Of a stretch of 64,000 nt of DNA, positions 1-64,000 are shown piece after piece. Source of the DNA: Candidatus Norongarragalinales archaeon (GTDB taxonomy: Archaea; Micrarchaeota; Micrarchaeia; Norongarragalinales; Norongarragalinaceae); the NCBI GenBank assembly GCA_038884755.1, contig JAWABJ010000001.1, forward strand, positions 19,856-83,855, in the 5' to 3' direction. Numbering within the stretch: position 1 is the stretch's first letter; each line of letters starts with the position of its first letter. The translations under genes and the position numbers were made by a program. The notes beneath the pieces are model-generated. The model searched no databases. It was not told where the DNA came from and saw nothing but the letters and a program-made list of their open reading frames with translations.

Positions 1-1238
1 AGGTTTTAGAGATAATAGAGAAAACTCCGGAACTCAACGTTCCCGTGAACGCGAAAGACTTTTACGCTTCCGCGGTGGTGCGGGAAATGGCGGGCTACAG
101 CCTGATAGACCCGCTGGTTGCGGACGACAATCTAGAGGAAATAATGATAATCGGGCCCGGGAAGCCGGTTTACGTGTTCCACCGCAAGTACGAGATGCTC
201 AAGACCAACGTGTTTTTTTACGACGACGAGGACATTCGCAACTTGATAGAGCGCATAGGGCGGACCGTAGGAAGGCGCATCGATACGCAAGTGCCCATGC
301 TCGACGCGCGCCTGCCGGATGGCACGCGCGTTAATGCAACCATTCCGCCGTCAAGTATAGACGGTTCGACTCTTACGCTGAGAAAGTTCCGCCGAGATCC
401 GCTAAGCATAATCGACTTGATTAACTTCAACACTTTGGACTTCGAGACGGGCGCGTTGTTGTGGATGGCGACCGACGGGCTGGGCGCGTATCCCGCGAAC
501 ATCTTGGTATCTGGAGGGACGGCGTCGGGAAAAACCACTACTCTCAACTGTCTTTGTTCTTTCGTTCCGAACAGCGAACGCATAGTCACTATAGAAGACA
601 CTGCGGAATTGAACTTGCCTTTGGAGCATTGGGTGAGGCTGGAAGTGAGGCCCGCTTCGCTGGAAGGGTCGGGAGAAATCACCATGAACGATTTGGTGAA
701 GAACAGCATCAGGATGCGCCCGGACAGGATTATCGTGGGGGAAATCCGGGGAGAGGAGGGGTATACGATGTTCAACGCGATGAACACGGGGCACAGGGGC
801 GTCATGGGAACCGTTCATGCGAATTCGGCGCAAGAGACGCTCGTCCGCCTTGCGTCGCCGCCCATCAGCGTTCCGAACATAATGATTTCTTCCCTCAACA
901 TAGTGCTGATGCAGCACAGGATTCACGACCGGCGGCTCGGAACGCTGCGCAGGATTACGGAAGTAGCCGAGGTGAGCGCTGGCGACCCGAACAAGCCTGA
1001 AATCCAGGTGATTTACTCTTGGGACCCGGTGAAGGACAGGATTTACCCGACCGGCCTGCCTTCGGTTTTCTTCGACTCGCTCAAGCGGTACACCGGCTTG
1101 GACGACGAGGGAATCGCGAAGGAATTGAAGGAGCGGGAAAGTCTTTTGAAGAAAATGGCGCAAAGCGGAATCCGCGACATGGCCGAAGTGTGCAAAATCA
1201 CCCAGGGCTACATTTCCAGGAAGAAGCTTTCGATTTGA
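1..1238 (+). CDS. Type IV pilus/secretion ATPase (VirB11/TadA/CpaF family), 5'-truncated by the window edge
   Basis: Walker A GGTASGKT, TIEDTAEL Asp box, RMRPDRIIVGEIRG Walker B, MNTGH..GTVHA His box; frame is open from base 3. Confidence 0.93.
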   Translation, partial: VLEIIEKTPELNVPVNAKDFYASAVVREMAGYSLIDPLVADDNLEEIMIIGPGKPVYVFHRKYEMLKTNVFFYDDEDIRNLIERIGRTVGRRIDTQVPMLDARLPDGTRVNATIPPSSIDGSTLTLRKFRRDPLSIIDLINFNTLDFETGALLWMATDGLGAYPANILVSGGTASGKTTTLNCLCSFVPNSERIVTIEDTAELNLPLEHWVRLEVRPASLEGSGEITMNDLVKNSIRMRPDRIIVGEIRGEEGYTMFNAMNTGHRGVMGTVHANSAQETLVRLASPPISVPNIMISSLNIVLMQHRIHDRRLGTLRRITEVAEVSAGDPNKPEIQVIYSWDPVKDRIYPTGLPSVFFDSLKRYTGLDDEGIAKELKERESLLKKMAQSGIRDMAEVCKITQGYISRKKLSI

Positions 1239-1293
1239 ATCCTCCCGCGCCGTGCGGGGCGTTTCAGCGTATGAAACCGTTTAAAAGAGATTT

Positions 1294-2349
1294 TTGAGTA
1301 AGGATTTCATGCCCGAAGATAGACTCAAGCGGTTGAGCGAAACCGTGCGCAAAGAACCGTCTAGCGAGGGCCTTGAACGGATAATTTCCAAGCTCAAGCC
1401 TAAGGAAGAGGCGGAGGGCGACGGCGGAAAGCCCGCCTTGGATTTCAGGAAAGTCGATTTCGAGGAGGGAAGCGGGCCCCTGGCCGCGATAGGGCGTTTT
1501 TACTCGATGCTCGAAGGGCCGGTGGAAAAGCTGGCTTCGTTTTTGTCCAACTTTCCTGCGGTCCGCAGCTTGGACAAGAACCTCAAGGCCGCGGCTTTGC
1601 CTTTCAACACCGAGACTTACCTGGTGATAGCTTCTTCCGTTTCTTTGCTAGTGGCCTTGTTCACTTTCATCCTGCTCGCGACCGTTTCGATTTCCTTCAA
1701 CGACCAGGTCTCGTTTTTCATCAACCCCATAATCTCCCTAGTAGTGTTCCTGATTTCGGCGGTAGTGATACTGGTTTACCCCGTCTCCCGCGCGAACCAG
1801 CGGGCGGCGTTGGCGGACAAGGCGCTGCCGTTCGCGTTGCGCCAGCTTTCCACGCAATTGAAGGCCGGTTTGAGTTTTTACAAGGCGCTGAGCTCGCTGG
1901 CGAAGTCGGAGTACGGCTTGCTGAGCAGGGAGTTTGAAATCGTTTTGAGGGATTTGGATTCGGGCTTGAGCAGCGAAGAAGCGTTGCGCTTGCTCACGCA
2001 GCGCGTTAAATCTGAAGGGTTGCGCAAGGCTGTTTTGCAGATAGTGCGGGCGATGAAAACGGGGGGCAACCTTTCGATGGTGATTTCGGAAATCGCCGAC
2101 GACGTTTCGTTCGAAACGCGCCAGCAAATCCGCGATTTCACCGAAAAGCTCAATCTTGTAAGCATATTGTACATCATGCTGGGCATAGTCATGCCCGTAG
2201 TCGTAGCGATACTTTCCGCGGTGCTGCAAATTCCCCTGTTCGCGGGCGCAATTCCGGGGTGGTTCGTTTACGCCGGTTTCGCGATGTCGGTGCTTTTCAT
2301 GGTTTTGATTGTTTACATCACTAGGAAGATGGAGCCGGCGGCTTGGTGA
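1294..2349 (+). CDS. Type II secretion system F domain protein (TadC/TadB-like pilus platform)
   Basis: LPFALRQLSTQLKAGLS...YGLLSREF T2SSF-like core with TM helices, directly after the ATPase. Confidence 0.85.
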   Translation: MSKDFMPEDRLKRLSETVRKEPSSEGLERIISKLKPKEEAEGDGGKPALDFRKVDFEEGSGPLAAIGRFYSMLEGPVEKLASFLSNFPAVRSLDKNLKAAALPFNTETYLVIASSVSLLVALFTFILLATVSISFNDQVSFFINPIISLVVFLISAVVILVYPVSRANQRAALADKALPFALRQLSTQLKAGLSFYKALSSLAKSEYGLLSREFEIVLRDLDSGLSSEEALRLLTQRVKSEGLRKAVLQIVRAMKTGGNLSMVISEIADDVSFETRQQIRDFTEKLNLVSILYIMLGIVMPVVVAILSAVLQIPLFAGAIPGWFVYAGFAMSVLFMVLIVYITRKMEPAAW

Positions 2350-2353
2350 AAAA

Positions 2354-3280
2354 ATGGTTTCTTTCGAGGATTTGAGGGAACGGTTTGCCGTCGAGTACGA
2401 GAAAATGCGCGAGTATTACGCGGCGACGGGCTTCAGCTTTTCATTCGAGGTTTTTCTCGCCGGCTTCGCCTTGCTTGCGCTTTTGATTGCCATAGTGCTT
2501 TTGCTTTTGAACCTGAGCCTTTTCGAAGTCGTGGTGGCGTTTTTCGCGGTCATGAGCTTTTCCATAAGCATTCCCATAACCATGCGCGAGAACCGGATTG
2601 CGGAGATTGAGTCGAACCTTCCCGACGCACTGAAGCACATGGCTTTGGTTTTGAAGGCGGGGGGAACTGTGGAAAACGCTTTGGAGGAAGTGGCGCTGCC
2701 GGACGGCTACGGCAGCCTTGGCGCGGATTTCAAGAAAGCGCTGGGGCGTTTGCGCAGGGGACAGAGTTTCGAGAGCGTTTTGGTGAAGATAGCTGAAGAG
2801 AGCGGCTCGCTTTTGCTCAGGCGGACTGCTTCCATAATCGTCGACGCGAGGCGGGCTGGCGCGGGCTTGGCCGACGTGCTTTTCGCGATTTCCGACGACG
2901 CCAAGGACGTTTTGCACATCCAGCGCGAGAGGCTTTCGCGCACGGTGATGCACGCGATTTTCATCGCTTCCTCGAGCATAATAATCGCGCCGTTCATTTT
3001 CGGATTCGCCTTGAGCGTCATCAACTTTATTGCAGTGAACATGCTCAAGGCTTTGCCCAACGCCAAGGCCATGGACGTGTGCTCTTTGAACACCACTTTC
3101 GTGCTGTTCCTGGTCATTCAGACCATCGTGGCGGCCGTCGCGCTTGGGATAGTGCGTTTCGGCAAGACTGGAAAGTATTTATTGTACCTTCCCGTGCTTG
3201 TTTTGATTTCGCTGCTGATTTTTGAGACGGCGAAGTGGCTGAGCAACGTGATTGTCGGAGGCACGGGATTGGTATGTTGA
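2354..3280 (+). CDS. Second T2SSF/TadC-like membrane platform protein
   Basis: IESNLPDALKHMALVLKAGG...YGSLGADF motif; ATG at 2354 after a GGTGA SD-like site. Confidence 0.85.
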   Translation: MVSFEDLRERFAVEYEKMREYYAATGFSFSFEVFLAGFALLALLIAIVLLLLNLSLFEVVVAFFAVMSFSISIPITMRENRIAEIESNLPDALKHMALVLKAGGTVENALEEVALPDGYGSLGADFKKALGRLRRGQSFESVLVKIAEESGSLLLRRTASIIVDARRAGAGLADVLFAISDDAKDVLHIQRERLSRTVMHAIFIASSSIIIAPFIFGFALSVINFIAVNMLKALPNAKAMDVCSLNTTFVLFLVIQTIVAAVALGIVRFGKTGKYLLYLPVLVLISLLIFETAKWLSNVIVGGTGLVC

Positions 3281-3381
3281 AGAGGGCGCAGACCACCATC
3301 GAATACGCTTTGCTTATAGCGTTCGTGGTGGCGTTGATTACGGCGATAGGCTATTTCATCAAAACCAGGGTGTTGGCTTGA
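3274..3381 (+). CDS. 35-aa micro-pilin with class III signal peptide (absent from the ORF track)
   Basis: Manual translation MLKRA|QTTIEYALLIAFVVALITAIGYFIKTRVLA*; overlaps the upstream stop and the downstream start. Confidence 0.75.
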   Translation: MLKRAQTTIEYALLIAFVVALITAIGYFIKTRVLA

Positions 3382-3557
3382 TTTTGCGCAAGGCGCAGAC
3401 CGTCATGGAATACCTGCTTTTGCTTGCGGGCGTGATGGTCATAATCGTGCTGATAACCATTCTTGTGCGCGGGGGGATTTTCATTCCCGCTTCCAATGAG
3501 ATAAGCACGAGCGTTTCTACCATAAAGGCGTTCGGCTCTGCTTTGGCCAGCCCGTAA
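3378..3557 (+). CDS. Small class III signal-peptide pilin
   Basis: RKA|QTVMEYLLLLAGVMVIIVLITIL; TTG start at 3378 or 3384 inside the track ORF 3252..3557. Confidence 0.78.
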   Translation: MILRKAQTVMEYLLLLAGVMVIIVLITILVRGGIFIPASNEISTSVSTIKAFGSALASP

Positions 3558-3570
3558 TTTGCATTAGTTT

Positions 3571-3578
3571 TTTAAATA
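3571..3578 (+). promoter_or_regulatory. Putative TATA box for the pilin at 3622
   Basis: TTTAAATA in the short intergenic gap about 45 nt upstream of the ATG. Confidence 0.4.
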
Positions 3579-3621
3579 CCGCGTGGTAATAGAATTAAAT
3601 TTCGTGGAGAGGGCGATTGTC

Positions 3622-3933
3622 ATGGCTTTGAAGGGGCAAGGGATGTTCGAGTACATTCTTCTTTTGGCGGGAATACTGCTCATAGTGGTTTTGGCGATAG
3701 TGGTTTTGAGGGGAGGCTTGTTCGGAGGGGCCGAGCAGGACATTCAACGGCAAAATTGCCAGGCTGCTTTGTCGCGCTCGTCTTACTGTTATGCGACGAG
3801 CGGATTGTGGAACGAGACCGGCGCGCCCACGCCGTACCCGCAAGTTTGCGTGAACATCGGCTACAACGGTTCCGGAGACGGGTGCAGCGTCGCGTTCGGT
3901 GACGACTGTTCGTGCGGCCCCAGGCCGGGTTGA
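3622..3933 (+). CDS. Cys-rich type IV pilin (candidate major pilin)
   Basis: MALKG|QGMFEYILLLAGILLIVVLAIVVL followed by a 6-Cys globular domain; own TATA-like element. Confidence 0.82.
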   Translation: MALKGQGMFEYILLLAGILLIVVLAIVVLRGGLFGGAEQDIQRQNCQAALSRSSYCYATSGLWNETGAPTPYPQVCVNIGYNGSGDGCSVAFGDDCSCGPRPG

Positions 3934-3939
3934 GTCGAA

Positions 3940-4107
3940 TTGCGAAAGAGCCAGGCTGCAATCGAATACATCCTTTTGGTAGCTTTGGGGTTGTTCATCA
4001 TAGTGGTCGGCTTCACCATAGCTTTTTTTGTTAATGATTTCACGAAAAGCGTGCTTGTGGGCGTCGACCAGACGCGCTCGCAGGCGATAGCCCTTTTGGT
4101 CAGGTAA
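3940..4107 (+). CDS. 55-aa class III signal-peptide pilin (absent from the ORF track)
   Basis: Manual translation from TTG: MRKS|QAAIEYILLVALGLFIIVVGFTIAFFVNDFTKSVLVGVDQTRSQAIALLVR*. Confidence 0.75.
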   Translation: MRKSQAAIEYILLVALGLFIIVVGFTIAFFVNDFTKSVLVGVDQTRSQAIALLVR

Positions 4108-4118
4108 ACGTTTTTGCG

Positions 4119-4574
4119 TTGGCTGATTTTCTTCCCGCGGCGGCTTTCGTTTTCGCTTTCGCCGCATCCGCTTCAGACTTGGGCTTGCGCCGGATTCCCG
4201 ACCCGCTGAACCTTTCGTTTTTCGCCCTCGCTTTTTCAGCCAGCCTCGCTTCCGGCGTGCTGCCGGCGTTCGCCCTTTTCTCGGTTTTTTCGTTTTTGCT
4301 TTCGAGGTGGGCTTACGGCCTGGGCGCTTGGGGCGGGGGTGACGTGAAGTTTTTCGTCTCTCTTTCTTCTTTCCTTCCTGCTTTGGGCGAGGGTTTGGAA
4401 AGCGTCTTTTTGCTTTTCGTGGTTTCAGCGTTCTTGTGCGGGCTGGCGGCGCTTTCGGCTTTTTCAATAAAACTATTAAAGAACGGGCGCGTGAAGAGTT
4501 TGGCCGGCCCGGGGCGGGTGGTTTTCGCGCCTTTCCTGGCGGCCGCGTTCGCAATAGTGGTGTTTTTCAAATGA
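4119..4574 (+). CDS. Prepilin peptidase (A24 family, PibD/FlaK/EppA-like), compact
   Basis: SDLGLRRIPD and WGGGDVK catalytic Asp motifs, C-terminal FAPFL, multiple TM helices. Confidence 0.85.
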   Translation: MADFLPAAAFVFAFAASASDLGLRRIPDPLNLSFFALAFSASLASGVLPAFALFSVFSFLLSRWAYGLGAWGGGDVKFFVSLSSFLPALGEGLESVFLLFVVSAFLCGLAALSAFSIKLLKNGRVKSLAGPGRVVFAPFLAAAFAIVVFFK

Positions 4575-5038
4575 AAAAATCCCAGTTGGGCGTTGAGTTT
4601 TTCCTGGTATTGAGCGTGGTCGTCGCTTTCATCGTGATACTTTACACCACCGCGTTCCAGGAAATCGGGAAAACGCGTGCGTTGAACGACGCGGTGCTTT
4701 CCAAGGCCGCGGTGGACGCCATGGCGCAAGGCATTGACTTCGCCTACTTGGGCGGAGACGGCAGCGTGCTGCAAAAGCAGCTTTTCGTTTCCCAGAATTC
4801 AAACTGCTTTTACACCACGCCGTCGGGTTTGCTCAAGGTTTACTGCACCGTTTCTTCCGAGTACTTGGATGTGCTTACTGGCGGGAAAGAGCAGGTTTTC
4901 AGCCAAGAGCTTTTCACCCCGCGGGGCAAGCTGGTTTTCTTCGACTGCGCCCCGCTCAACGGCGGCTGGGTCAACGTGAGCATTCGCAATGCGATTTCTA
5001 CTTTGGGTTTCGTTAATGTCTCGTGCAGGATGGCTTGA
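4571..5038 (+). CDS. Minor pilin-like protein with class III signal peptide
   Basis: MKKS|QLGVEFFLVLSVVVAFIVIL; ATG at 4571 overlaps the upstream stop. Confidence 0.75.
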   Translation: MKKSQLGVEFFLVLSVVVAFIVILYTTAFQEIGKTRALNDAVLSKAAVDAMAQGIDFAYLGGDGSVLQKQLFVSQNSNCFYTTPSGLLKVYCTVSSEYLDVLTGGKEQVFSQELFTPRGKLVFFDCAPLNGGWVNVSIRNAISTLGFVNVSCRMA

Positions 5039-5057
5039 CGGCTGCGTGGTGTTTAAG

Positions 5058-5456
5058 ATGCGGGGGCAGGTTGGTGCGGAGTTCATAATCCTCGTTTCGC
5101 TGCTCCTGTCGCTGTCGGTAATAATACTGGCGAATTCGTTCAAGGAAATGGAGACTGGCATGGTCGTCGCGGCAGTGCGAAGCGCTTCGGAAAATGTCGC
5201 CTTGCGACAGGGGGTTTCTTTCTACAACGTTTCCTATTCGGTCAAGCCTAATGCCGTGATTTTGAAGCCGGTTTTTTCCGGTGGTTTCCGCGATAGGGGC
5301 GAGTGGACTGAAGACATCGCCCTGCGGGCAAAGGCGGTGCTGGCTCCCAATTCCCAGCTTGAAGCTTGTTCCGGCCAGGTTGAAGGCTGTTGCGCCGACC
5401 CCGACGCGGCGGACGGCTTGTGCTTTTCCACGACGAGGTGCTTTTGCGTAAAGTGA
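5058..5456 (+). CDS. Minor pilin-like protein with Cys-rich C-terminus
   Basis: MRG|QVGAEFIILVSLLLSLSVIIL; tail C..CC..C..CFC. Confidence 0.72.
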   Translation: MRGQVGAEFIILVSLLLSLSVIILANSFKEMETGMVVAAVRSASENVALRQGVSFYNVSYSVKPNAVILKPVFSGGFRDRGEWTEDIALRAKAVLAPNSQLEACSGQVEGCCADPDAADGLCFSTTRCFCVK

Positions 5457-5806
5457 ATTTCAAGGAAGAGCGGATTTTCTTTTTGTCTTTGTTCTTGTCT
5501 TTCGCCGGAATCGCGGTTTTGTTCGCGCTTTCGCAAAGCGCGTCCGCGCGCGAAGCAGAGGTTTCCCAGCTTTCAAGCGAGGATTTCGGGAGGACTGTTT
5601 TGCTTAAGGGCAAGGCGGTTTCGGTTTCCTCGAACGGGGAAACCGTTTTCTTCCGCCTGTGCGCTTCGGCGTGCGTCAAGGTGGTGGTTTTCAGGAGCCG
5701 TTCTGCCGTTTCGGAAGGCGCGTTCGTTTCCGTGGAAGGCCGGGTTTCCGAGTTCGAAGGGCGGATTGAAATAATCGCCGATTCCGTTGAAGTGCTGAAG
5801 TCTTGA
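5453..5806 (+). CDS. Membrane-anchored OB-fold protein
   Basis: N-terminal TM, then GRTVLLKGKA...VSVEGRVSEFEGRIEIIADSV OB-fold pattern. Confidence 0.65.
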   Translation: MNFKEERIFFLSLFLSFAGIAVLFALSQSASAREAEVSQLSSEDFGRTVLLKGKAVSVSSNGETVFFRLCASACVKVVVFRSRSAVSEGAFVSVEGRVSEFEGRIEIIADSVEVLKS

Positions 5807-6967
5807 GTGGGTTTTTTGCTGGAAGAGTTTTTCTTGGGTTTTTTTTCCGGGTTTGCGGGCTTGCTGGCGTTCTTGCACGCCAACACCCTGCTTAAGCTTT
5901 CCTCGCCGTTCTTGTGGCCTGGTTTTTCCAAGGCGGTTTTCTCCTCGTCTCTTTCGTTCTCCAAAATCGTTTTCGAGCTCGTCCCGACCTTGTTTTTCTT
6001 CGCGCCTTCGATTTCCTACGGCGTTTCAATTCTTCCGGCGCAAAAGCTTTTCTTCGAGGGAAAGGGGATTTCGGCGTTGAAAACCACGCTTGCATGCTTT
6101 TTTCTCGCCGCACTGCTTTGCCTGGCTTTGGCGCCGCCGTTTTTCATAGCCTTACCTTTGCTTGACGCTCTAGTCTCGCCTTTCGCAGGGTGGGTTTTGC
6201 TTTTTGTTTTGGGCGCGTCTTTCGCGAGCAAGCAAAAGCGTTGGGCAAGCGCCTTCGCTTTCGCCCTTTCAGGAGTGTTGGGCATGGCGTTGTTTTCAAA
6301 ACCGTTTCTGCCCGACCCGCTGTTTCCACTACTGTCGGGCTTGTTCGGAATTCCCGCGTTGCTTTTTTCCCTCAATTCTCCGAAGCCAGCGCAAAAAGAA
6401 GCTGGCGTGGCGAACGTCGATTTGAAAATAATCTTTTGGGCCGTGGTTTTCGGGGGGTTGTCTTCCCTGTTGCCCGGCTTGTCGCCAGTCGTTTTGGTTT
6501 CCTTGCTGTTTTTGTTTCTGGAGGGCGCGGGAGCCATGGTTTTCGTCCAGGCTGTTGCGGCAACGCTGGTTTCAAAAACTTTCTTCGACTTTCTTGCTTT
6601 CGTTGCAATAGGCAAGGCTCGCAGCGGGGCAGTGGCTTTCGCTTCGCAAGGGCTTTCGGCGGGTTCGCTGCCGTCAGTGCTCGTCGCAGGCGTGGCATCG
6701 CTTTTCCTCGCAATAGCGACCATGCTTTTGCTCTACAAGCGGCTTTCCTCGCTTTCCTTGCTTGGTGGGAACAAGGTTCCGCTGGTAGTCGCGGTTTTCC
6801 TTGCAGCGGCTGTTTTAGCGTTCCAAGGGTTTTTGGGGCTGTTCGCGATGGCGGTCGCCGCTTGCCTGGGGGTTTGCGCGGGTTTATTGGGCGCCGACAA
6901 GACGTCGCTTCTCGGCTGCCTCTTCGTCCCTTCGCTGGCGTTCTACTTCGGCTTTTCCCTTGCATAG
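5807..6967 (+). CDS. TctA-like / DUF112 polytopic membrane protein
   Basis: GFAGLLAFLHANT N-terminal motif, ILPAQKLFFEGKG, LFPLLSGLFGIP, GKARSG; many TM helices. Confidence 0.7.
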   Translation: MGFLLEEFFLGFFSGFAGLLAFLHANTLLKLSSPFLWPGFSKAVFSSSLSFSKIVFELVPTLFFFAPSISYGVSILPAQKLFFEGKGISALKTTLACFFLAALLCLALAPPFFIALPLLDALVSPFAGWVLLFVLGASFASKQKRWASAFAFALSGVLGMALFSKPFLPDPLFPLLSGLFGIPALLFSLNSPKPAQKEAGVANVDLKIIFWAVVFGGLSSLLPGLSPVVLVSLLFLFLEGAGAMVFVQAVAATLVSKTFFDFLAFVAIGKARSGAVAFASQGLSAGSLPSVLVAGVASLFLAIATMLLLYKRLSSLSLLGGNKVPLVVAVFLAAAVLAFQGFLGLFAMAVAACLGVCAGLLGADKTSLLGCLFVPSLAFYFGFSLA

Positions 6968-7009
6968 CCTGAAAGGTTTAAAACGAAAAAATCCTTAATC
7001 CTCTCTCGG

Positions 7010-7507
7010 TTGCGGGTGGATGTTTTGTCGAAGCGCGGGCAGTTTTCAATAGAGTTTTTCGTGGTGCTCACTTTTTTCGTGCTCGTGCTGTTGTGGTTCA
7101 ACAACTACTACAACGACTTGCGCTCGCAAGACTTGGTTTTCATGCAGCAAAAGCAATTGGTGAAGCAAATCGCGCTTTTGGAAGGCGAGTCTTTCTCTCA
7201 AAACCAGACTCTTTACTTCGACTTGCCTTGCCTCGTTTCCGAGGGAAAGGCGTTCTCGTATTGGGTTTACGGCGGGAGCGTTTACGGGGGCGAAGTTCGC
7301 GCGGGAACCAACCAAACGACTTTGCTCGTCGTGCTCCGCTCGACGGGCCAGTCTGAAAACTCTTCTTTCGCGGTTTCCGCTTTTCCCAACCCGCTGGTTT
7401 TCGAGTGTTCGGGCGGCAGTGCGGGCAGAATTTTTTTCAGGAGGGAGAAAGTCCTGCCTTTCGGCGGCGGGGCGGCAGTAGACGGCGTTCTGTTGGGGAG
7501 AGGTTGA
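7010..7507 (+). CDS. Pilin-like protein with class III signal peptide (start may be TTG 7025)
   Basis: KRG|QFSIEFFVVLTFFVLVLLWF. Confidence 0.72.
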   Translation: MRVDVLSKRGQFSIEFFVVLTFFVLVLLWFNNYYNDLRSQDLVFMQQKQLVKQIALLEGESFSQNQTLYFDLPCLVSEGKAFSYWVYGGSVYGGEVRAGTNQTTLLVVLRSTGQSENSSFAVSAFPNPLVFECSGGSAGRIFFRREKVLPFGGGAAVDGVLLGRG

Positions 7508-7513
7508 TTTGAA

Positions 7514-7837
7514 ATGCGCAGGGGGCAGTTGTTCAGCGTGGATTTCTTGCTTGCGGTGGCAGTCTTGACCATGGCGCTCGGGATTTGGCTTAATTCGCAC
7601 TCGCAAATAGAGCGGAACGCCGGCGGCAGCATAGCGAACTCCAGCGCTTTCGCGCTTGCCGAATCTTATTACTCCCGGCTTTCGGCCGGCGAGTCGGCGT
7701 TGCAAATGGGTTGCCTTGAAAACGCGGGGGTAGTGGTTTGCGACTCGTGCCCTTCGGGCGGGGAAAAGTTTTTCGTGCAACGGATATACTCGCGGGCGGG
7801 GAGCCCGAAGCTTTTGAGGGTGGGGTCGTGTTCTTGA
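7514..7837 (+). CDS. Pilin-like protein with class III signal peptide
   Basis: MRRG|QLFSVDFLLAVAVLTMALGIW; 4 Cys. Confidence 0.7.
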   Translation: MRRGQLFSVDFLLAVAVLTMALGIWLNSHSQIERNAGGSIANSSAFALAESYYSRLSAGESALQMGCLENAGVVVCDSCPSGGEKFFVQRIYSRAGSPKLLRVGSCS

Positions 7838-7838
7838 A

Positions 7839-8201
7839 ATGAAGCGTGGCATTTTCCTTTTGATAGACGCTTTCCTTGCGCTCACGCTCGCGATTTTGCT
7901 TTCCCTTTCGGTCGCGGTTTTCTCGCAGGCGCACGAGCCCATGCTGGTGCAGCTGCACCAGCTGGGAAGGGATTACTTGGTTTTGCAGCACAAGCAGGGC
8001 GTTTCCTTCGATTTCGCCGGCCTTACCGGCTTCAATTCCACCTCGCGCCATAGCGTGGGAAGCAAAATCGTGGTGTACCCGCGGTTGTGCGTCGACCCGC
8101 CGTTGCCTCCCGCGAACCCGCATTGTTTTTCCGGGCAGGATGTTTTTGATTCGCGTGGGGCTAGGAAGGTTTTGGTTTTCAACACTACGGTGAGCCCTTG
8201 A
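7839..8201 (+). CDS. Pilin-like protein with class III-like signal peptide
   Basis: MKRG|IFLLIDAFLALTLAILLSL. Confidence 0.65.
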   Translation: MKRGIFLLIDAFLALTLAILLSLSVAVFSQAHEPMLVQLHQLGRDYLVLQHKQGVSFDFAGLTGFNSTSRHSVGSKIVVYPRLCVDPPLPPANPHCFSGQDVFDSRGARKVLVFNTTVSP

Positions 8202-8764
8202 CTTTGAAAAAATCTTTTGCGACCGCGTTTTTCGCCGCAATGGTAGTTTTCGCGCTGGCTTTCCTGGCGTCGGTTTTGCTGGTGCAGGACTCGGGCTTTC
8301 AAAACGCGCAACTGGAATCGCGCATTGCAGGCGCGCGTTTTGAGGACGCGAGGGATTTAGTGAATTGGACGCAGGAAGACGCAATTTTCGACGCGGCGTA
8401 TGCTTTCGCTTGCAACTCGCAGGTTTTCTGCGATACGTATCCTACGCTAGTAAATTCATACTGGAGCAACGTGCGCGGCGAGTTGAATGATTCTATCGTA
8501 AACGTGTCGTTTTCCGGAACCGTTGCGTCTTGCGGGTGGTTTCAAGTCTTGCCTGACACTTTCAGTTTCAACGTTGGTTTTACGGGCGTTATGGAAGTCA
8601 CTTCCAAAAATACTTTCAAGAACGCGAGTTTTGCTTTCGCAAAGACCGGTACGGTGCAGACGCGTTCCAGCCCTAGGGGAGCGACGGCGAGAGTTTTTGA
8701 GACGGGAACAACGTTTTCGTACGACTGTCCCGCAGGCTTTGGCGGCGGTTTGGAAGTGGGGTAG
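8198..8764 (+). CDS. Pilin-like/secreted protein
   Basis: KKS|FATAFFAAMVVFALAFL hydrophobic N-terminus; coupled to the upstream gene; several N-x-S/T sequons. Confidence 0.55.
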   Translation: MTLKKSFATAFFAAMVVFALAFLASVLLVQDSGFQNAQLESRIAGARFEDARDLVNWTQEDAIFDAAYAFACNSQVFCDTYPTLVNSYWSNVRGELNDSIVNVSFSGTVASCGWFQVLPDTFSFNVGFTGVMEVTSKNTFKNASFAFAKTGTVQTRSSPRGATARVFETGTTFSYDCPAGFGGGLEVG

Positions 8765-60213: not shown

Positions 60214-63200
60214 TCATTTCGGCGCTTGGCCTTCGAACGCGGTGCCGCCTTCGGAACCGAGCCAAACAACGTCCTGGTTAAGAGTGGAAACAAGCTGTAG
60301 GGTGCGATAGTTGATTTCACTCTTCATCAAAAGCGAGTTTGCGCCTCCTGTCTTGTCCGTCCAAGTTTGCCCCGCGTCGTGGCTGTAGAATATTCCGACC
60401 TCGTCGTTTTGCGTGTAATCGTCTTTAACCAATTCTCCCGAAGCCGCGTAAACCCGCTGCGGGTATTCGGGGTCGGTGTCGACTGCGGACAAGAAAGTGT
60501 ACGGAAGCCTTCTGCTCCAAGTCCATTCGCTTCCGCTTTTAACCCCTTTCCACAATCCTCCTGACGCTCCATTTGGGCTGGTGTCGCTTTGCCCTATTTT
60601 CCTGAACGCTGCTATGTAGAGAGTTCCGTCGCTCGCCAATTCCAAATCCCTAATGTCTTTCGGGGGCTTGATGAGTTGGTTGACCGAATCTATAATGTTG
60701 AGCTGCGTCCACGTTTGCCCGCCGTCGGTGCTCTCCCACACTCCGCCTCCCCCGCTTAAACCTTCTTGGATTCCGAGGAAAATGCGGTTCAAGTCGTTTT
60801 CGCCAACTTCAAACGCGTAGATGTTGGGGTTTGAAATTCCGAGCGTGGTTGTAATGCTTTGCCAAGTAGCCCCGCCGTCGCCGCTTTTGTACAAGCCGTT
60901 GCCGTAAACCGCGGCGAACAAGACGAGGTTGTTGCCCGCGTCCCGGAACGTTTTCAAATCAGTGATTTGCCTTGCCGGCAAACCGTTTTGCGGAATCGGC
61001 TCTCCGTTCGCGTCGCGCGCGTAGTCGCCCGGGTTGTATCCGCAAATGCTTTTAGGCTGACCTACCGTACAAGCGAAAACTTGCACCGGCGTCCATTGCT
61101 CTTGCGGCGTGTCCATGCCCGTTATCTTGAACAGCACGCCTTTGTTGTCTTTGCCGTAATTGTTTTTGAGGCCGAACCCGACGAAGACCGATTGCGTTTG
61201 CTCGTCCGCCGCGATGGCGTAAGCGTCTTGCCCGTATTCGTTGAAAATGTCGAGCGTCATTTCGAGCGTGTAATTGTGTTTCGGTATGAACGTATTGCCG
61301 CCGTCTGAGGTTGTAGTAACGCCTACGTCGAAGTGGGCGAAAACAACGTGCTGCGCGTCCCAAGGCAGCGGCAGGATGTCGTCGGTGTACAAAACTTCCG
61401 GCCCTTTCGTGCTCCAAGTCCCCAGCCTGCGGCCGCTCCCGCCGTAATTCACGTACGGCTCGTCGGAAATCTTGTTCGAGTAAAGCCCTTGCCACGTTGC
61501 CCCGCCGTCCTTCGACTCGTAAACTTGCGACCACGTTGCAGACAATAGGTGGTCTGAAGGGCCTAGAGTTTTAACGAAAGTGTTCCTGAACGTTCCCGCT
61601 TCGTGCCAAGAGTCTTGGAAATTGCTCGCCGTCCACCTGCCAGAGCTTGAATCGTATTCGGGAAGCGGCCTTGTTATTTTAGCCCAAGTTGCGCCTGCAT
61701 TGGCGCTTTTCCACAATCCCCTGGCCCACCAGCATCCCAAGTGGTTTCCGCTCGCGTAAACGACGTTAGCGTCGGCGGGCGAGGCTGAAACGCCCAGCCA
61801 CCGTTTTCCTGAAAAAGTCGGCAGCCCGCCGTTGTCCATGGTTCCTGTGTCGGCGTCGTAGAAAGAATCGCTGCAGCCGTTGTTTGAAGGGATTGGCCGG
61901 GCGTTGGCTTTAATCCAGCTTGCCTGCTTGGTCAGGGGGTTGAGAGTTCCGACGTAAACGCCCCCGTCGGGCTGACCTTGGCCGTTGGTGAACTCGTCTA
62001 CGACAACGTAGAGCTTTATTCCCTGGCCTGCGGTATAGCCCAACGCCATTTTCTTTATTCCGTACTCTGCGCTTTCGTAAGCGTTGCCGTTGGACATTGC
62101 AGGCGAAGGCAGCCCTTGGTTTTCTTGCTTCCAGCTCCAAGAGCCGTCGGGATTGTGCATTCCCCGCCAGAATCCGCCTTCATTTGGAATGGTTTGGGGG
62201 TTGTCGTATTGGTATGCGAACAACTGGGACTGGTTGGTGGGGTCTATGTACAATCCGGCTATGGATATTCCGCCGTTGAAATTGAGGTTGTAGACCGGGT
62301 CGTTGTTGCCGCCTATTGCAACGCCGTCTTGGGCGCGTATTTTTACCGGAGTCCAGCTCGCGCCCGTCCGGTTGTAGTACAATACCGCCCCAGCGCCTCT
62401 TACTGCGGCGTAAACGCCGTGCGTTGTCGCTTGCGTTTCGTTCAAAGCCAACGCCGTAAATGGGGCGCCGTCGTTGTTCCACCCGAAGTTGTGCTGGAGG
62501 CGGGCCCAGTTTTGCCCGCCATCAGTGCTTTCGAAAAGCCCGTGCGTCGAGGCGTAAAGCAACCCCGGGTTTTTGGTTGAGGCGGCAATGTCGTAAAACA
62601 CGCCGTACCCGCCCCACCCTCCTCCAATAAAACCTTTGGACGAAGGAACCCAGTTTGCGCCCGCGTCAGTGCTTTTGTAGACTGTTCCCATGTCGTTTGT
62701 TGCATAGTATGTGGCTGGAACGAGCGGGTCTGCAATGATGTTGGTGAAAGCCCCGCCTCCGCCTATGCCTTTCTGCAGCCACAAGAAATCTCCCGGAGGC
62801 GATGGACTGGGAGAGGGTGATGGCGAAGGGCTTGGAGAAGGGGAAGGCGATGCGCTGGGCGAAGCCGACGGAGAAACGCTAGGCGACGGGGAAACGCTAG
62901 GCGAAGGAGAACCTTGCGTTTGAACTTGAATTCCAACCTCCCCGCACCACAGCTTGTCTTGCGGAAGGATGCTTATGCAGCCTTGCGGCCTTTGCAAAGA
63001 AGCGCAAAAACTCCCGTCAGGCAAAACGTATTTAGAACGGTCGACTTGCCCGCACGCGTTCCACTGGCTTCCAGCATAACAACTGGAATCCTTAGCCAAA
63101 CGCGCCCAACAATTCGTTGCCTCGACGCTTTGCGAAGCGGGGGCGAAGACGAAGCTGCGGAATACAACCAGCCCCACGACCGCGATGAGCAAAACCCCTG

Positions 63201-63243
63201 CGAGCAGAATCATGTACTCGAATGCAGCCTGCCCGCGCTTCAC
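60214..63243 (-). CDS. Pilin-domain / Ser-Pro linker / Asp-box beta-propeller (GH74/sortilin-like) fusion protein
   Basis: MKRG|QAAFEYMILLAGVLL class III signal peptide; (SP)n linker; eight SxD/NxGxxW/F Asp boxes. Confidence 0.85.
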   Translation of the reverse strand: MKRGQAAFEYMILLAGVLLIAVVGLVVFRSFVFAPASQSVEATNCWARLAKDSSCYAGSQWNACGQVDRSKYVLPDGSFCASLQRPQGCISILPQDKLWCGEVGIQVQTQGSPSPSVSPSPSVSPSASPSASPSPSPSPSPSPSPSPSPPGDFLWLQKGIGGGGAFTNIIADPLVPATYYATNDMGTVYKSTDAGANWVPSSKGFIGGGWGGYGVFYDIAASTKNPGLLYASTHGLFESTDGGQNWARLQHNFGWNNDGAPFTALALNETQATTHGVYAAVRGAGAVLYYNRTGASWTPVKIRAQDGVAIGGNNDPVYNLNFNGGISIAGLYIDPTNQSQLFAYQYDNPQTIPNEGGFWRGMHNPDGSWSWKQENQGLPSPAMSNGNAYESAEYGIKKMALGYTAGQGIKLYVVVDEFTNGQGQPDGGVYVGTLNPLTKQASWIKANARPIPSNNGCSDSFYDADTGTMDNGGLPTFSGKRWLGVSASPADANVVYASGNHLGCWWARGLWKSANAGATWAKITRPLPEYDSSSGRWTASNFQDSWHEAGTFRNTFVKTLGPSDHLLSATWSQVYESKDGGATWQGLYSNKISDEPYVNYGGSGRRLGTWSTKGPEVLYTDDILPLPWDAQHVVFAHFDVGVTTTSDGGNTFIPKHNYTLEMTLDIFNEYGQDAYAIAADEQTQSVFVGFGLKNNYGKDNKGVLFKITGMDTPQEQWTPVQVFACTVGQPKSICGYNPGDYARDANGEPIPQNGLPARQITDLKTFRDAGNNLVLFAAVYGNGLYKSGDGGATWQSITTTLGISNPNIYAFEVGENDLNRIFLGIQEGLSGGGGVWESTDGGQTWTQLNIIDSVNQLIKPPKDIRDLELASDGTLYIAAFRKIGQSDTSPNGASGGLWKGVKSGSEWTWSRRLPYTFLSAVDTDPEYPQRVYAASGELVKDDYTQNDEVGIFYSHDAGQTWTDKTGGANSLLMKSEINYRTLQLVSTLNQDVVWLGSEGGTAFEGQAPK
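62795..62910 (-). repeat. Coding Ser-Pro tandem repeat (linker)
   Basis: PSPSVSPSPSVSPSASPSASPSPSPSPSPSPSPSPSPP. Confidence 0.85.
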
Positions 63244-63326
63244 AGAAAAATCTCCTCTTACGGTTTTCCCACCCTATGGAAATCTTAAAACGAAAGAGTG
63301 TTATTAATCCGTTTGCTTTTTCCTAC

Positions 63327-64000
63327 GTGATTTTCAAGAACGAGCTTGCGTTGAAGGCGGATTTCGTTCCCGATTCGCTGCCCGGGCGAGAGGGTGAGAT
63401 AAACGAAATCGTTTTTTCCCTAGAGCCGGCTTTCGAAGGGCGCAAGGCGCGCAACTTGTTTTTGTTCGGGGCGACGGGGACAGGCAAAACGTCGTGCGTG
63501 AAAAAAGTTTTCGGGCGCTTCAACGAGGAGTCGAAAACCGCGAAAGCGGTTTTCGTCAACTGCTGGCAGAACCCGACCCGCAATTCCGTGCTTTCGCGCA
63601 TTGCGGAAGCGTCCGGCGAAGCTTTGCCGCGCAGGGGTTTGGGGACCGACGAGGTGCTCGAGCGGGTGGCGCAAGCTTTCCGGATGCAGAAAGCGTCTTG
63701 CGTTATTGCATTGGACGAGTGCGACCGTTTGCTGCACAACCGAGAGGATGCGGTTGTTTACGACTTGCTTCGCAGCGATTTCGTTTCGGCAATCGTTTGC
63801 ATCACCAACGACGCGGGGTTTCTGGAAAAGATTGACGAGCGAATCCGCAGTTCTCTCCAGCCTTCCGCGCTTGAGTTTTCCCGCTATTCTCCGGTCGCGT
63901 TGAAGCGAATCCTTTCGGAAAGGGCTTCGCTTGCCTTCAAGCCCGGCGCTTGCGGCGAGGAAGCGATTGCGCTGGTCGCGGCTTACGCGTCGAAGCAGGG
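63327..64000 (+). CDS. cdc6: Cdc6/Orc1 AAA+ replication initiator, 3'-truncated (absent from the ORF track)
   Basis: Manual translation from GTG: IFKNELAL..DFVP..LPGRE.EI, GATGTGKT Walker A, VNCW, IALDECDRL Walker B, RIRSS, F.RY. Confidence 0.9.
   Translation, partial: MIFKNELALKADFVPDSLPGREGEINEIVFSLEPAFEGRKARNLFLFGATGTGKTSCVKKVFGRFNEESKTAKAVFVNCWQNPTRNSVLSRIAEASGEALPRRGLGTDEVLERVAQAFRMQKASCVIALDECDRLLHNREDAVVYDLLRSDFVSAIVCITNDAGFLEKIDERIRSSLQPSALEFSRYSPVALKRILSERASLAFKPGACGEEAIALVAAYASKQ

Follow-up and report, generated by a model that had tools for sequence, protein, structure and literature searches.

We characterized a gene at positions 60214..63243 (- strand) of a 64,000-nucleotide stretch (here called the window) of contig JAWABJ010000001.1 from a Candidatus Norongarragalinales archaeon. 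According to the open reading frame (ORF) listing and its translation, the gene encodes a 1009-aa protein, whose sequence and predicted structure suggest a modular type IV pilin with a cargo resembling glycoside hydrolase (GH) family GH74. The ORF starts with GTG and its stop codon lies at 60214-60216. The leader, (M)KRG (63232..63243, -), is recognized through Class_IIIsignal (PF04021), and the predicted prepilin-peptidase cut after G4 would leave Q5 as position +1 and E9 as position +5 of the mature protein. In the AlphaFold 2 (AF2) model, a pilin alpha-1 helix follows (residues 5-50; 63094..63231, -), which is hydrophobic in its first half and kinked at FAP (33-35). A small pilin head, delimited by its Cys positions (residues 51-110; 62914..63093, -), contains C55, C64, C80, C89, and C100; with C45, which lies in the helix part, the 110-aa module has six Cys. 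A 40-aa Ser-Pro linker, GSPSPSV...SPSPP in the sequence (residues 111-150; 62794..62913, -), connects the head to a cargo of 860 aa, and linkers of the same type occur at the equivalent position in paralogs of the module. AF2, Foldseek, and VIA-align divide the cargo into an N-terminal propeller (about residues 151-554; 61582..62793, -), carrying a GGGG motif and the loop of D184, and a C-terminal propeller (about residues 555-1009; 60217..61581, -; also defined with a profile), carrying an HFDVG loop, with an approximate boundary between them. Two residues are candidates for catalysis, D184 (cargo D35; codon at 62692..62694, -), located by pairing with GH74 chains, and D639 (cargo D490, in HFDVG; codon at 61327..61329, -), located by a profile column; both were checked by coordinates, and the motif GGGGAF...ATNDMGTVYKS and HFDVG both lie in the cargo. 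Canonical Asp boxes (S/T-x-D-x-G-x-x-W/F) occur at seven positions (191, 239, 577, 645, 787, 838, and 954), and an eighth box, at 513, is degenerate (SANAGATW). The eight boxes behind a Ser-Pro linker that had been described in the original prediction are thus a fair count.

The hydrophobic stretch after the leader, QAAFEYMILLAGVLLIAVVGLVVF, is a class III (prepilin-type) signal according to Pfam, where PF04021 covers residues 2-23 with 24.5 bits against a cutoff of 23.7. We compared the N-terminus of the fusion protein with that of the free-standing 103-aa pilin P0002, which is encoded in the pilus operon (3622..3933, +) and which BLASTP, a shuffle test, and alignment identify as the nearest small paralog of the module. 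BLASTP returned 31/64 identities (48%) with one gap and an E value of 3e-10 over residues 3-65, with NC, CY, and WN included, in keeping with the almost gap-free match noted earlier. Besides, the part behind the helix (residues 33-111 of the fusion protein, P0001) gave a Smith-Waterman score of 71 against P0002, which 0 of 2000 shuffled sequences reached (mean, 27.1; standard deviation, 5.3). The same part scored 55 against P0005, a second free small pilin encoded elsewhere in the genome, and 1 of 2000 shuffles reached that score. Therefore, the likeness to pilins is not confined to the hydrophobic helix.

We further aligned 27 sequences, comprising modules and free pilins of the window's genome and related genomes. 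Ten positions (Q5, F8, E9, Y10, L13, G16, C45, C55, C80, and C100) were invariant, and the pattern of KRG followed across the predicted cut by QAAFEY was common to the fusion module and the 26 other modules and pilins. Free pilins of 118 aa from a related genus (G005) match the pattern W-N-x-C...V-D...Y...C...G-C...(Y/W)-C-G up to their C-terminus. Since the invariant positions, four Cys among them, and the pattern of the free pilins run through the head, the fusion is judged from these alignments to retain an entire pilin, beyond the signal, and the recruitment of a whole pilin domain, as originally proposed, is upheld. The AF2 model of residues 1-112 (mean predicted local distance difference test [pLDDT], 85.6) has helices at 3-32 and 36-50, followed by the small head.

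As for the cargo, the single sequence matched only repeat types in Pfam (Sortilin-Vps10, BNR, and PSII_BNR). The match to Sortilin-Vps10 (PF15902, 36.6 bits against a cutoff of 33) had its best stretch at only profile positions 3-68 of 446, and NCBIfam NF045728 (F510_1955 glycosylhydrolase) gave 77.9 bits, below its cutoff of 175. An AF2 model of the cargo, built with 74 homologs, had a pLDDT of 74.4 and a predicted template modeling score (pTM) of 0.77. When this model was compared with the PDB by Foldseek, the matches listed to rank 24 (21 entries) were all GH74 proteins, with E values of 5e-27 to 1e-22 and template modeling (TM) scores by target of 0.60-0.69, followed by unrelated double propellers at 1e-16. 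VIA-align placed 613-651 residues onto GH74 chains with 17-19% identity and a root mean square deviation of 3.8-4.5 (Z, ~28). The best full-length matches of the model are 7+7-bladed GH74 structures, and the blade number used here is taken from these matches.

Sequence comparison gave a similar result. Against GH74 chains of the PDB, the single sequence had E values, inflated by the repeats, of 1.6e-8 (whole protein) and 5.7e-15 (N-terminus), and the first 111 cargo residues were collinear with the N-termini of at least 10 distinct GH74 chains. A HMMER search of 1.84 billion representatives returned 12,236 proteins at E<=1e-3, the best with 1.4e-45 and ~39% identity in stretches. Over its whole length, the cargo is collinear with six bacterial homologs (25-27% identity), and in the alignment of the seven sequences the extra length of the cargo consists of loop insertions. 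Bacterial homologs picked by motif have Sec-type N-termini, and at least one has a tail of the type IX secretion system (T9SS). A profile of the cargo and the six homologs matched GH74 with E values from 4.5e-45 (4lgn) to 1.2e-24 (3a0f), sortilin with 2.5e-10, and sialidases with ~1e-6, values that the repeats again inflate; readings of the cargo as a ten-bladed Vps10 propeller or a six-bladed GH33 sialidase appear less likely on this comparison. The GH74 likeness first noticed from a short motif is thus found again in both the fold matches and the subfamily profile. Three other candidates were discarded: P0263, the best match of the N-terminal propeller (E 2.1e-45), proved to be a BNR protein with regular repeats and no collinearity with the cargo and was dropped as an ortholog, and the matches of P0055 and P0079 are confined to the low-complexity Ser-Pro linker. 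An ortholog of the cargo was not found in 60 related genomes, where there were weak matches only (G043, 5.2e-7; G005, 2.2e-5).

The two candidate Asp residues fall on conserved positions of GH74. D184, the Asp of NDMG, sits on the Asp of the 'rtDigg'/'asDmeg' loop in the GH74 chains 4lgn, 5jwz, 6p2k, and 6p2m. In the profile, the column of D490 (D639) falls on the Asp of 'algDlggf' in 4lgn (chain D451) and of 'algDiggf' in 6p2o; a single-sequence search of the PDB with the HFDVG region (residues 590-760) gave nothing relevant, and D639 is mapped via the subfamily profile only. Furthermore, 'rGlEtt' of the cargo profile pairs with 'kGlEet' of GH74, and the GGGG motif, D35, E467, and D490 were invariant in 7/7 sequences (the cargo and the six homologs). 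Both positions accord with the Asp residues singled out in the original prediction. We take the two aligned Asp residues to be the GH74 catalytic pair, that is, D35/D465 in OXG-RCBH and D70/D480 in C. thermocellum Xgh74A. Two PDB titles ('2ebs D465N' mutant and '6mgl D60A mutant') and the 413-residue spacing in 4lgn agree with this pair. From these alignments and models, we conclude that the cargo is a predicted member of an uncharacterised, mostly bacterial, GH74-related subfamily that retains the presumed catalytic apparatus.

In addition to the gene in the window, the genome (G000; 926,659 bp in 9 contigs, 93% complete) has at least three further genes with the same N-terminal module of ~150 aa, 82-87% identical to that of the target, on differing carbohydrate-active cargos; a search for such fusions had been proposed with the original prediction. 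One paralog, of 841 aa, carries a carbohydrate-binding module (CBM) of the CBM60 type (Pfam 1.6e-8) and an N-terminal GH51-like catalytic region that matches GH51 alpha-L-arabinofuranosidases (PDB 3ug3, 1.4e-9). Another, of 764 aa, carries LamG/Laminin_G_3 (1.1e-20) and then a GH5/GH39-type TIM barrel (GH-A), the placement of the barrel being a lead from the ESM Atlas (feature score, 0.95-0.98; TM, 0.79-0.91). The fourth fusion consists of the pilin module, a Ser-Pro linker, thrombospondin type 3 (TSP3) repeats, and a right-handed beta-helix (C3:2-187(-) and C1:2-2473(+); loci L011 and L032). It is split by the assembly within a repeat, its first 64 codons ending contig C3 and the other 824 starting contig C1. 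The DNA of its module is almost identical to that of the paralog on contig C2, and contigs C3 and C1 probably adjoin, the assembly having broken at this repeat.

The similarity among the paralogs at the DNA level runs from the QAAFEY codons to the end of the linker, and the upstream regions are unrelated; as read from the DNA alignment, in front of every module gene there is a separate A/T-rich box with a GAGG-type ribosome site. Among the three complete copies, the proportion of synonymous differences (pS) was 0.59-0.67, near saturation, and that of non-synonymous differences (pN) was 0.07-0.09, which gives pN/pS of 0.11-0.14 overall; for the head alone, pN/pS was 0.12-0.17. Because synonymous sites are nearly saturated and non-synonymous changes are few, the cassette is, on the evidence of these sequences, old and maintained by selection in each gene. 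At least two of the cargos have bacterial proteins as their nearest relatives, which suggests that such cargos may have been acquired from bacteria, with their Sec signal replaced by the resident pilin cassette.

Equivalent fusions also occur in two genomes of the same genus (G001 and G002), with LamG plus TIM barrel, TSP3 plus beta-helix, and LamG alone (G002:C46, 479 aa) as cargos. Class-III pilin matches were present in 56/61 related genomes, the window's genome included. Ten large class-III proteins sampled from other genera carried GH114 (one), beta-helix/NosD (three), CarboxypepD_reg (one), or no recognised cargo (five). In a species-level genome collection, 52 loci contained 65 ORFs with the N-terminal motif of the module, nine of which are at least 200 aa long, and 47/52 loci are labelled Micrarchaeota, Micrarchaeia, or Norongarragalinales. 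The design with a full head, a Ser-Pro linker, and a hydrolase was found in one of these nine long ORFs, from a genome of the same genus. Since this is the only ORF of the full design in the 52 loci, the design looks genus-specific inside a lineage-wide habit, as far as these sequences go. When the 112-aa module was searched against longer proteins in a collection of 5.8 billion proteins, the paralog from its own genome alone was recovered among 202 candidates, which is weak evidence of rarity. The sequencing run that contains more than half of the sampled words of the stretch is a hot-spring metagenome.

Two further observations concern the wider family. A 1413-aa protein from a related genus (L045:72-4310, G014 contig C1) has a class III signal, a Cys-containing pilin-like region, and GH114 (Pfam 4.1e-20), and is by its domains another enzyme-type cargo in the family. 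In the same-genus genomes, L036 and L039 (G002:C56 and G001:C96) encode a divergent module, ~33% identical and with the leader GKRGISDAGFAVLMMGLLLF, which has no Q at +1 and is joined to a linker rich in Thr, Ser, and Pro, to a LamG-like region, and to a TIM-barrel-type domain; there may thus be a second lineage of cassettes.

Genes for pilus machinery, identified by Pfam and ORFs, occupy 45..4574 (+) of the window. They comprise a T2SSE ATPase (45-1238; 4.2e-51), two T2SSF platform genes (1294-2349 and 2309-3280; 1.1e-22 and 7.3e-13), ORFs for three small class-III pilins of 59, 103, and 55 aa (3252-3557, 3622-3933, and 3940-4107), and an A24 prepilin peptidase (4119-4574; Peptidase_A24, 4.7e-10), all on the + strand. 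The fusion gene is ~56-59 kb away from them by our measurement, close to the 57 kb first reported. The whole genome of 0.93 Mb encodes two A24 peptidases and five T2SSE-family ATPases. On contig C2, the fusion gene for LamG plus TIM barrel has one pair of ATPase and peptidase genes ~19-21 kb upstream of it. The two platform genes in the window (1294-3280, +) overlap by ~40 nt, and a two-platform arrangement is described in the text of PMC13705601 as 'system 1' of archaeal type IV filaments (T4F), placed in DPANN. The mini-pilins of ~59 aa (3252-3557) and ~55 aa (3940-4107), both on the + strand, lie on either side of the 103-aa pilin, and the 55-aa one (QAA[IV]EYILLVALGLF...) is conserved beside a larger pilin in many related genomes. 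At 4436-8764 (+), downstream of the A24 peptidase, are at least six more ORFs with pilin-like N-termini (for example, KSQLGVEFFLVL, RGQVGAEFIIL, RGQFSIEFFVVL, and RRGQLFSVDFLLAV), which are probably minor pilins of the same system.

We consider it rather probable, from the sequence and structure comparisons above, that this archaeal fusion protein is a modular type IV pilin and uses type IV pilus machinery to present a GH74-like glycanase. The MKRG leader would be removed after G4, probably by one of the two A24 prepilin peptidases, and the QAAFEY... N-terminus, with Glu at +5, the hydrophobic helix, and the six-Cys head would make up a complete pilin subunit. Through this module, the protein would dock into a type IV pilus system, where its likeliest places are the filament tip, positions scattered along the filament, or a short surface stub. 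The 40-aa Ser-Pro stalk, which we estimate to reach up to ~10 nm when extended, would hold the 860-aa tandem seven-bladed Asp-box propeller off the filament, and the propeller would cut a beta-linked glycan. GH74 enzymes use both Asp residues for the inverting hydrolysis of beta-glucan chains. Because the same cassette is found on three other carbohydrate-active cargos, one pilin module appears to be used generally as a handle by which glycan-active proteins are displayed outside the cell, and the four fusions look like a surface-displayed glycan-processing toolkit. The cargo pilin put forward in the original prediction thus finds support in the complete pilin paralog, the reuse of its cassette on other cargos, the GH74-like fold, and the presence of machinery genes, whereas an attack on host S-layer glycans and a cellulosome-like display, also put forward there, are speculation.

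Several points weigh against this interpretation. With regard to the pilin part, the 3622 pilin P0002 is slightly below the PF04021 cutoff (22.7 against 23.7 bits), the head had no relative in the PDB by Foldseek at E<=0.001, and a wide VIA search with the head reached a Z of at most 3.3, with only long helices matched; the predicted pilin fold is based solely on the sequence family and on the helix-plus-head topology of the model. With regard to the cargo, the proteins nearest in sequence are bacterial BNR proteins without annotation, none of them a characterised enzyme, identity to GH74 is 14-19%, and a cargo ortholog was not found in four same-genus genomes, which are 69-89% complete and therefore do not show absence. 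Single seven-bladed WD40 propellers equal GH74 in VIA Z, and because of this tie we set Z aside and used aligned length and identity instead; the WD40 matches span only ~300 residues with 7-12% identity. The presumed catalytic role of the Asp pair is supported only by the two mutant titles and the spacing in 4lgn. With regard to display, a cargo of 860 aa would make a filament subunit bulky, any of the five ATPase systems may serve the fusion proteins, and the archaeal class-III-signal cargos described in the texts of PMC3047682 and PMC13705601 are thought to reside in an envelope bindosome, not in long pili.

Among the alternatives, the best placed, though still unlikely, is that the propeller is a non-catalytic adhesin or lectin, which binds a glycan of a host cell, biofilm matrix, or particle at the pilus tip without hydrolysis, in the manner of PilY1/PilC and S. 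sanguinis PilC. Some Asp-box propellers, Ycf48 and sortilin among them, are not enzymes, and the Pfam matches of the cargo are of these types (Sortilin-Vps10 and PSII_BNR). Its closest sequence relatives are uncharacterised, the fusion G002:C46 of the same genus bears a LamG lectin-type domain alone, and the bacterial modular pilins in the main text of PMC8179133 carry mainly binding modules. However, the subfamily keeps both Asp positions of GH74 and the GlE motif without variation, and the cargos of the paralogs, with family matches to GH51 and GH5/GH39, contain NE (FEVGNEVN and EGPNEPD) and TE (LTEFN and ITETGG) motifs, which we presume to be the catalytic motifs, the TE ones of nucleophile type, of clan GH-A. 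Since both GH74 Asp residues are kept, the propeller is more likely a glycanase than a mere lectin, as judged by residue conservation.

Somewhat less plausible is a role in surface anchoring only, similar to that in a bindosome, in which the protein is exported and then retained at the membrane or envelope by means of its class III signal and helix, perhaps as part of a short pseudopilus, acts at the cell surface, and never enters extended pili. The cargo is very large beside a pilin of 100 aa, the five T2SSE ATPases leave room for a dedicated non-pilus system, and large class-III-signal proteins are common in related genomes, most of them without the full head and Ser-Pro linker. Here, however, a complete Cys-rich head, homologous to a pilin encoded within the pilus operon, is kept under purifying selection, and an extended linker of 40 aa is what would be expected where a cargo has to clear the surface of a filament. 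In the main text of PMC8179133, moreover, bacterial modular pilins are modelled as entering pili by their pilin module, probably at the tip.

A more far-reaching version of the modular pilin reading, which we regard as improbable, is a pilus-scaffolded enzyme array, in which at least four cargo pilins with one polymerisation cassette are co-assembled with the small operon pilins into a single filament. If this is true, the filament would bear, on flexible stalks of Ser-Pro, a glycanase of GH74 type, an arabinofuranosidase of GH51 type with CBM60, an enzyme combining LamG with GH-A, and an enzyme with a beta-helix. It would amount to an archaeal equivalent of the cellulosome, built by polymerisation, that could cut polysaccharides of biofilms or host envelopes away from a very small cell, and perhaps reach or open a host.

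Finally, the joining of the module to an unrelated propeller gene by misassembly across a repeat is very unlikely: the module is indeed a multi-copy repeat, one copy of which breaks the assembly (C3 end/C1 start), but the target module differs from the other copies at many synonymous sites (pS 0.59-0.65 to two complete copies), the target lies inside a 714-kb contig, each of the three complete fusions has its own module variant, an independently built short contig (62761-62886), from a run that may be the source sample, spans the linker to the cargo with 100% identity, and equivalent fusions occur in same-genus genomes from other assemblies. In the Logan contigs, the bins 61987-62430 and 63097-63207 were uncovered, from which we drew no conclusion. 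The single metatranscriptome from the same study (X3) contributed no coverage, which has no bearing on expression.

The modular pilin that we favor can be compared with several known systems. Bacterial modular pilins number more than 1,200 proteins in 264 architectures, many from bacteria of the candidate phyla radiation (CPR), according to the main text of Raynaud et al. 2021 (PMC8179133); their modules are mostly binding ones, including LamG and CarboxypepD_reg-like folds, plus one peptidase type, and Streptococcus sanguinis PilB with a vWA module and PilC with a concanavalin/LamG lectin module are examples. The fusion is similar to these in its N-terminal pilin module, linker, and grafted functional module and in the proposed presentation on a filament, and carbohydrate-binding PF13385 (LamG) and PF13620 occur both there and in this archaeal lineage. 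It differs from them in its archaeal host, in a Q(+1)-type class III signal, in a 40-aa Ser-Pro linker instead of a short loop, in glycoside-hydrolase-like cargos, and in the use of one near-identical cassette on four cargos in a 0.93-Mb genome.

For archaea, the texts of PMC3047682 and PMC3387779 describe the bindosome and proteins that bind sugars and carry class-III signals, and a 2026 survey (PMC13705601) proposes in its text that substrate-binding proteins functionalise T4F machineries. The Sulfolobales bindosome proteins GlcS, AraS, and TreS, as presented in PMC3047682 and PMC13705601, likewise have a non-pilin cargo behind a prepilin-type signal, their genes lie away from the T4F machinery that serves them in trans, and their N-termini are conserved and their C-termini variable. 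Their cargo is a solute-binding protein of an ABC transporter, whereas the domains here are enzyme-like propeller, TIM-barrel, and beta-helix domains, and the fusion, unlike the bindosome proteins, keeps a whole Cys-rich pilin head and a Ser-Pro stalk. An ABC transporter was not seen adjoining the target gene, whose neighbours are UbiA and Orc1/Cdc6, and the gene in this respect lacks a mark of the bindosome type.

The cargo itself shares with GH74 xyloglucanases and OXG-RCBH (4lgn, 6p2k, 6p2m, 6p2o, 5fkq, 1sqj/2ebs, 2cn2, 6mgj, and 7kn8, among others) the modelled tandem of seven-bladed Asp-box propellers, and the N-terminal GGGG...D[IM]G motif, the D-x-G motif of the C-terminal domain, and the G-l-E motif are all kept. 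Unlike the GH74 chains (696-789 aa), it has 860 aa with ~100-160 extra loop residues, lacks CBM2/CBM3, and is encoded by an archaeal host.

A large beta-rich domain thought to be located at the pilus tip is also found in PilY1/PilC tip adhesins and in archaeal DUF2341 class-III proteins, the latter large proteins regarded as putative tip adhesins in the text of Makarova et al. 2016 (PMC4858521); PilY1, however, is not itself a pilin and has a propeller of another family, and the DUF2341 proteins are encoded inside the type IV pilus locus. The Myxococcus Kil (Tad) pilus resembles the arrangement proposed here in that one filament system has several alternative tip subunits exposing variable domains, but it is bacterial, with multi-protein tip complexes of minor pilins and a role in prey killing, and without fused glycosidases, according to the text of PMC12075869. 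The cellulosome offers an analogy only: there, carbohydrate-active enzymes with Ser/Pro/Thr-rich linkers are tethered to a scaffold by a common docking module, with cohesin-dockerin pairs on scaffoldin, whereas docking here would be by polymerisation of the pilin module.

In the literature that we searched, neither archaeal fusions of a pilin with a glycosidase nor the repeated use of one pilin cassette is described, although supplementary tables may list such proteins. The main text of PMC8179133 contains neither 'archaea' nor 'glycos', and its Dataset S1 may include them; the text of PMC13705601 contains none of hydrolase, modular, fused, enzym, or cargo, and its S-tables or S9 Fig may do so; the text of PMC4858521 is without 'hydrolase'. 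With bacterial modular pilins and archaeal bindosome proteins as precedents, the idea of a cargo pilin is less unprecedented than the original prediction implied.

The genes on either side of the fusion gene encode a UbiA prenyltransferase and a divergent Orc1/Cdc6 (63222-63998, +). The listed ATG of the Orc1/Cdc6 gene overlaps the first codons of the fusion gene, and the true start is therefore probably further downstream. A replication origin might be located near the intergenic region between Orc1/Cdc6 and the fusion gene.

Micrarchaeota and other DPANN archaea, whose genomes are minimal, are attached to other cells in their way of life, and how they reach and process external polymers is poorly understood. 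Cells of the ARMAN type have been reported to touch Thermoplasmatales via pili-like structures, as stated in the text of PMC5864196. One cassette on four glycan-active cargos is a large investment for a 0.93-Mb genome, and it leads to the testable hypothesis that archaeal type IV filaments, or their machinery, act as an enzyme-display platform. If this is true, it would widen the principle of the modular pilin from bacterial adhesion modules to archaeal catalytic modules, and the idea of the archaeal bindosome from binding proteins to enzymes. Furthermore, the GH74-related subfamily, which is mostly bacterial and secreted by Sec/T9SS, with both Asp residues conserved, is a candidate source of new glycanase specificities, here in a hot-spring community.

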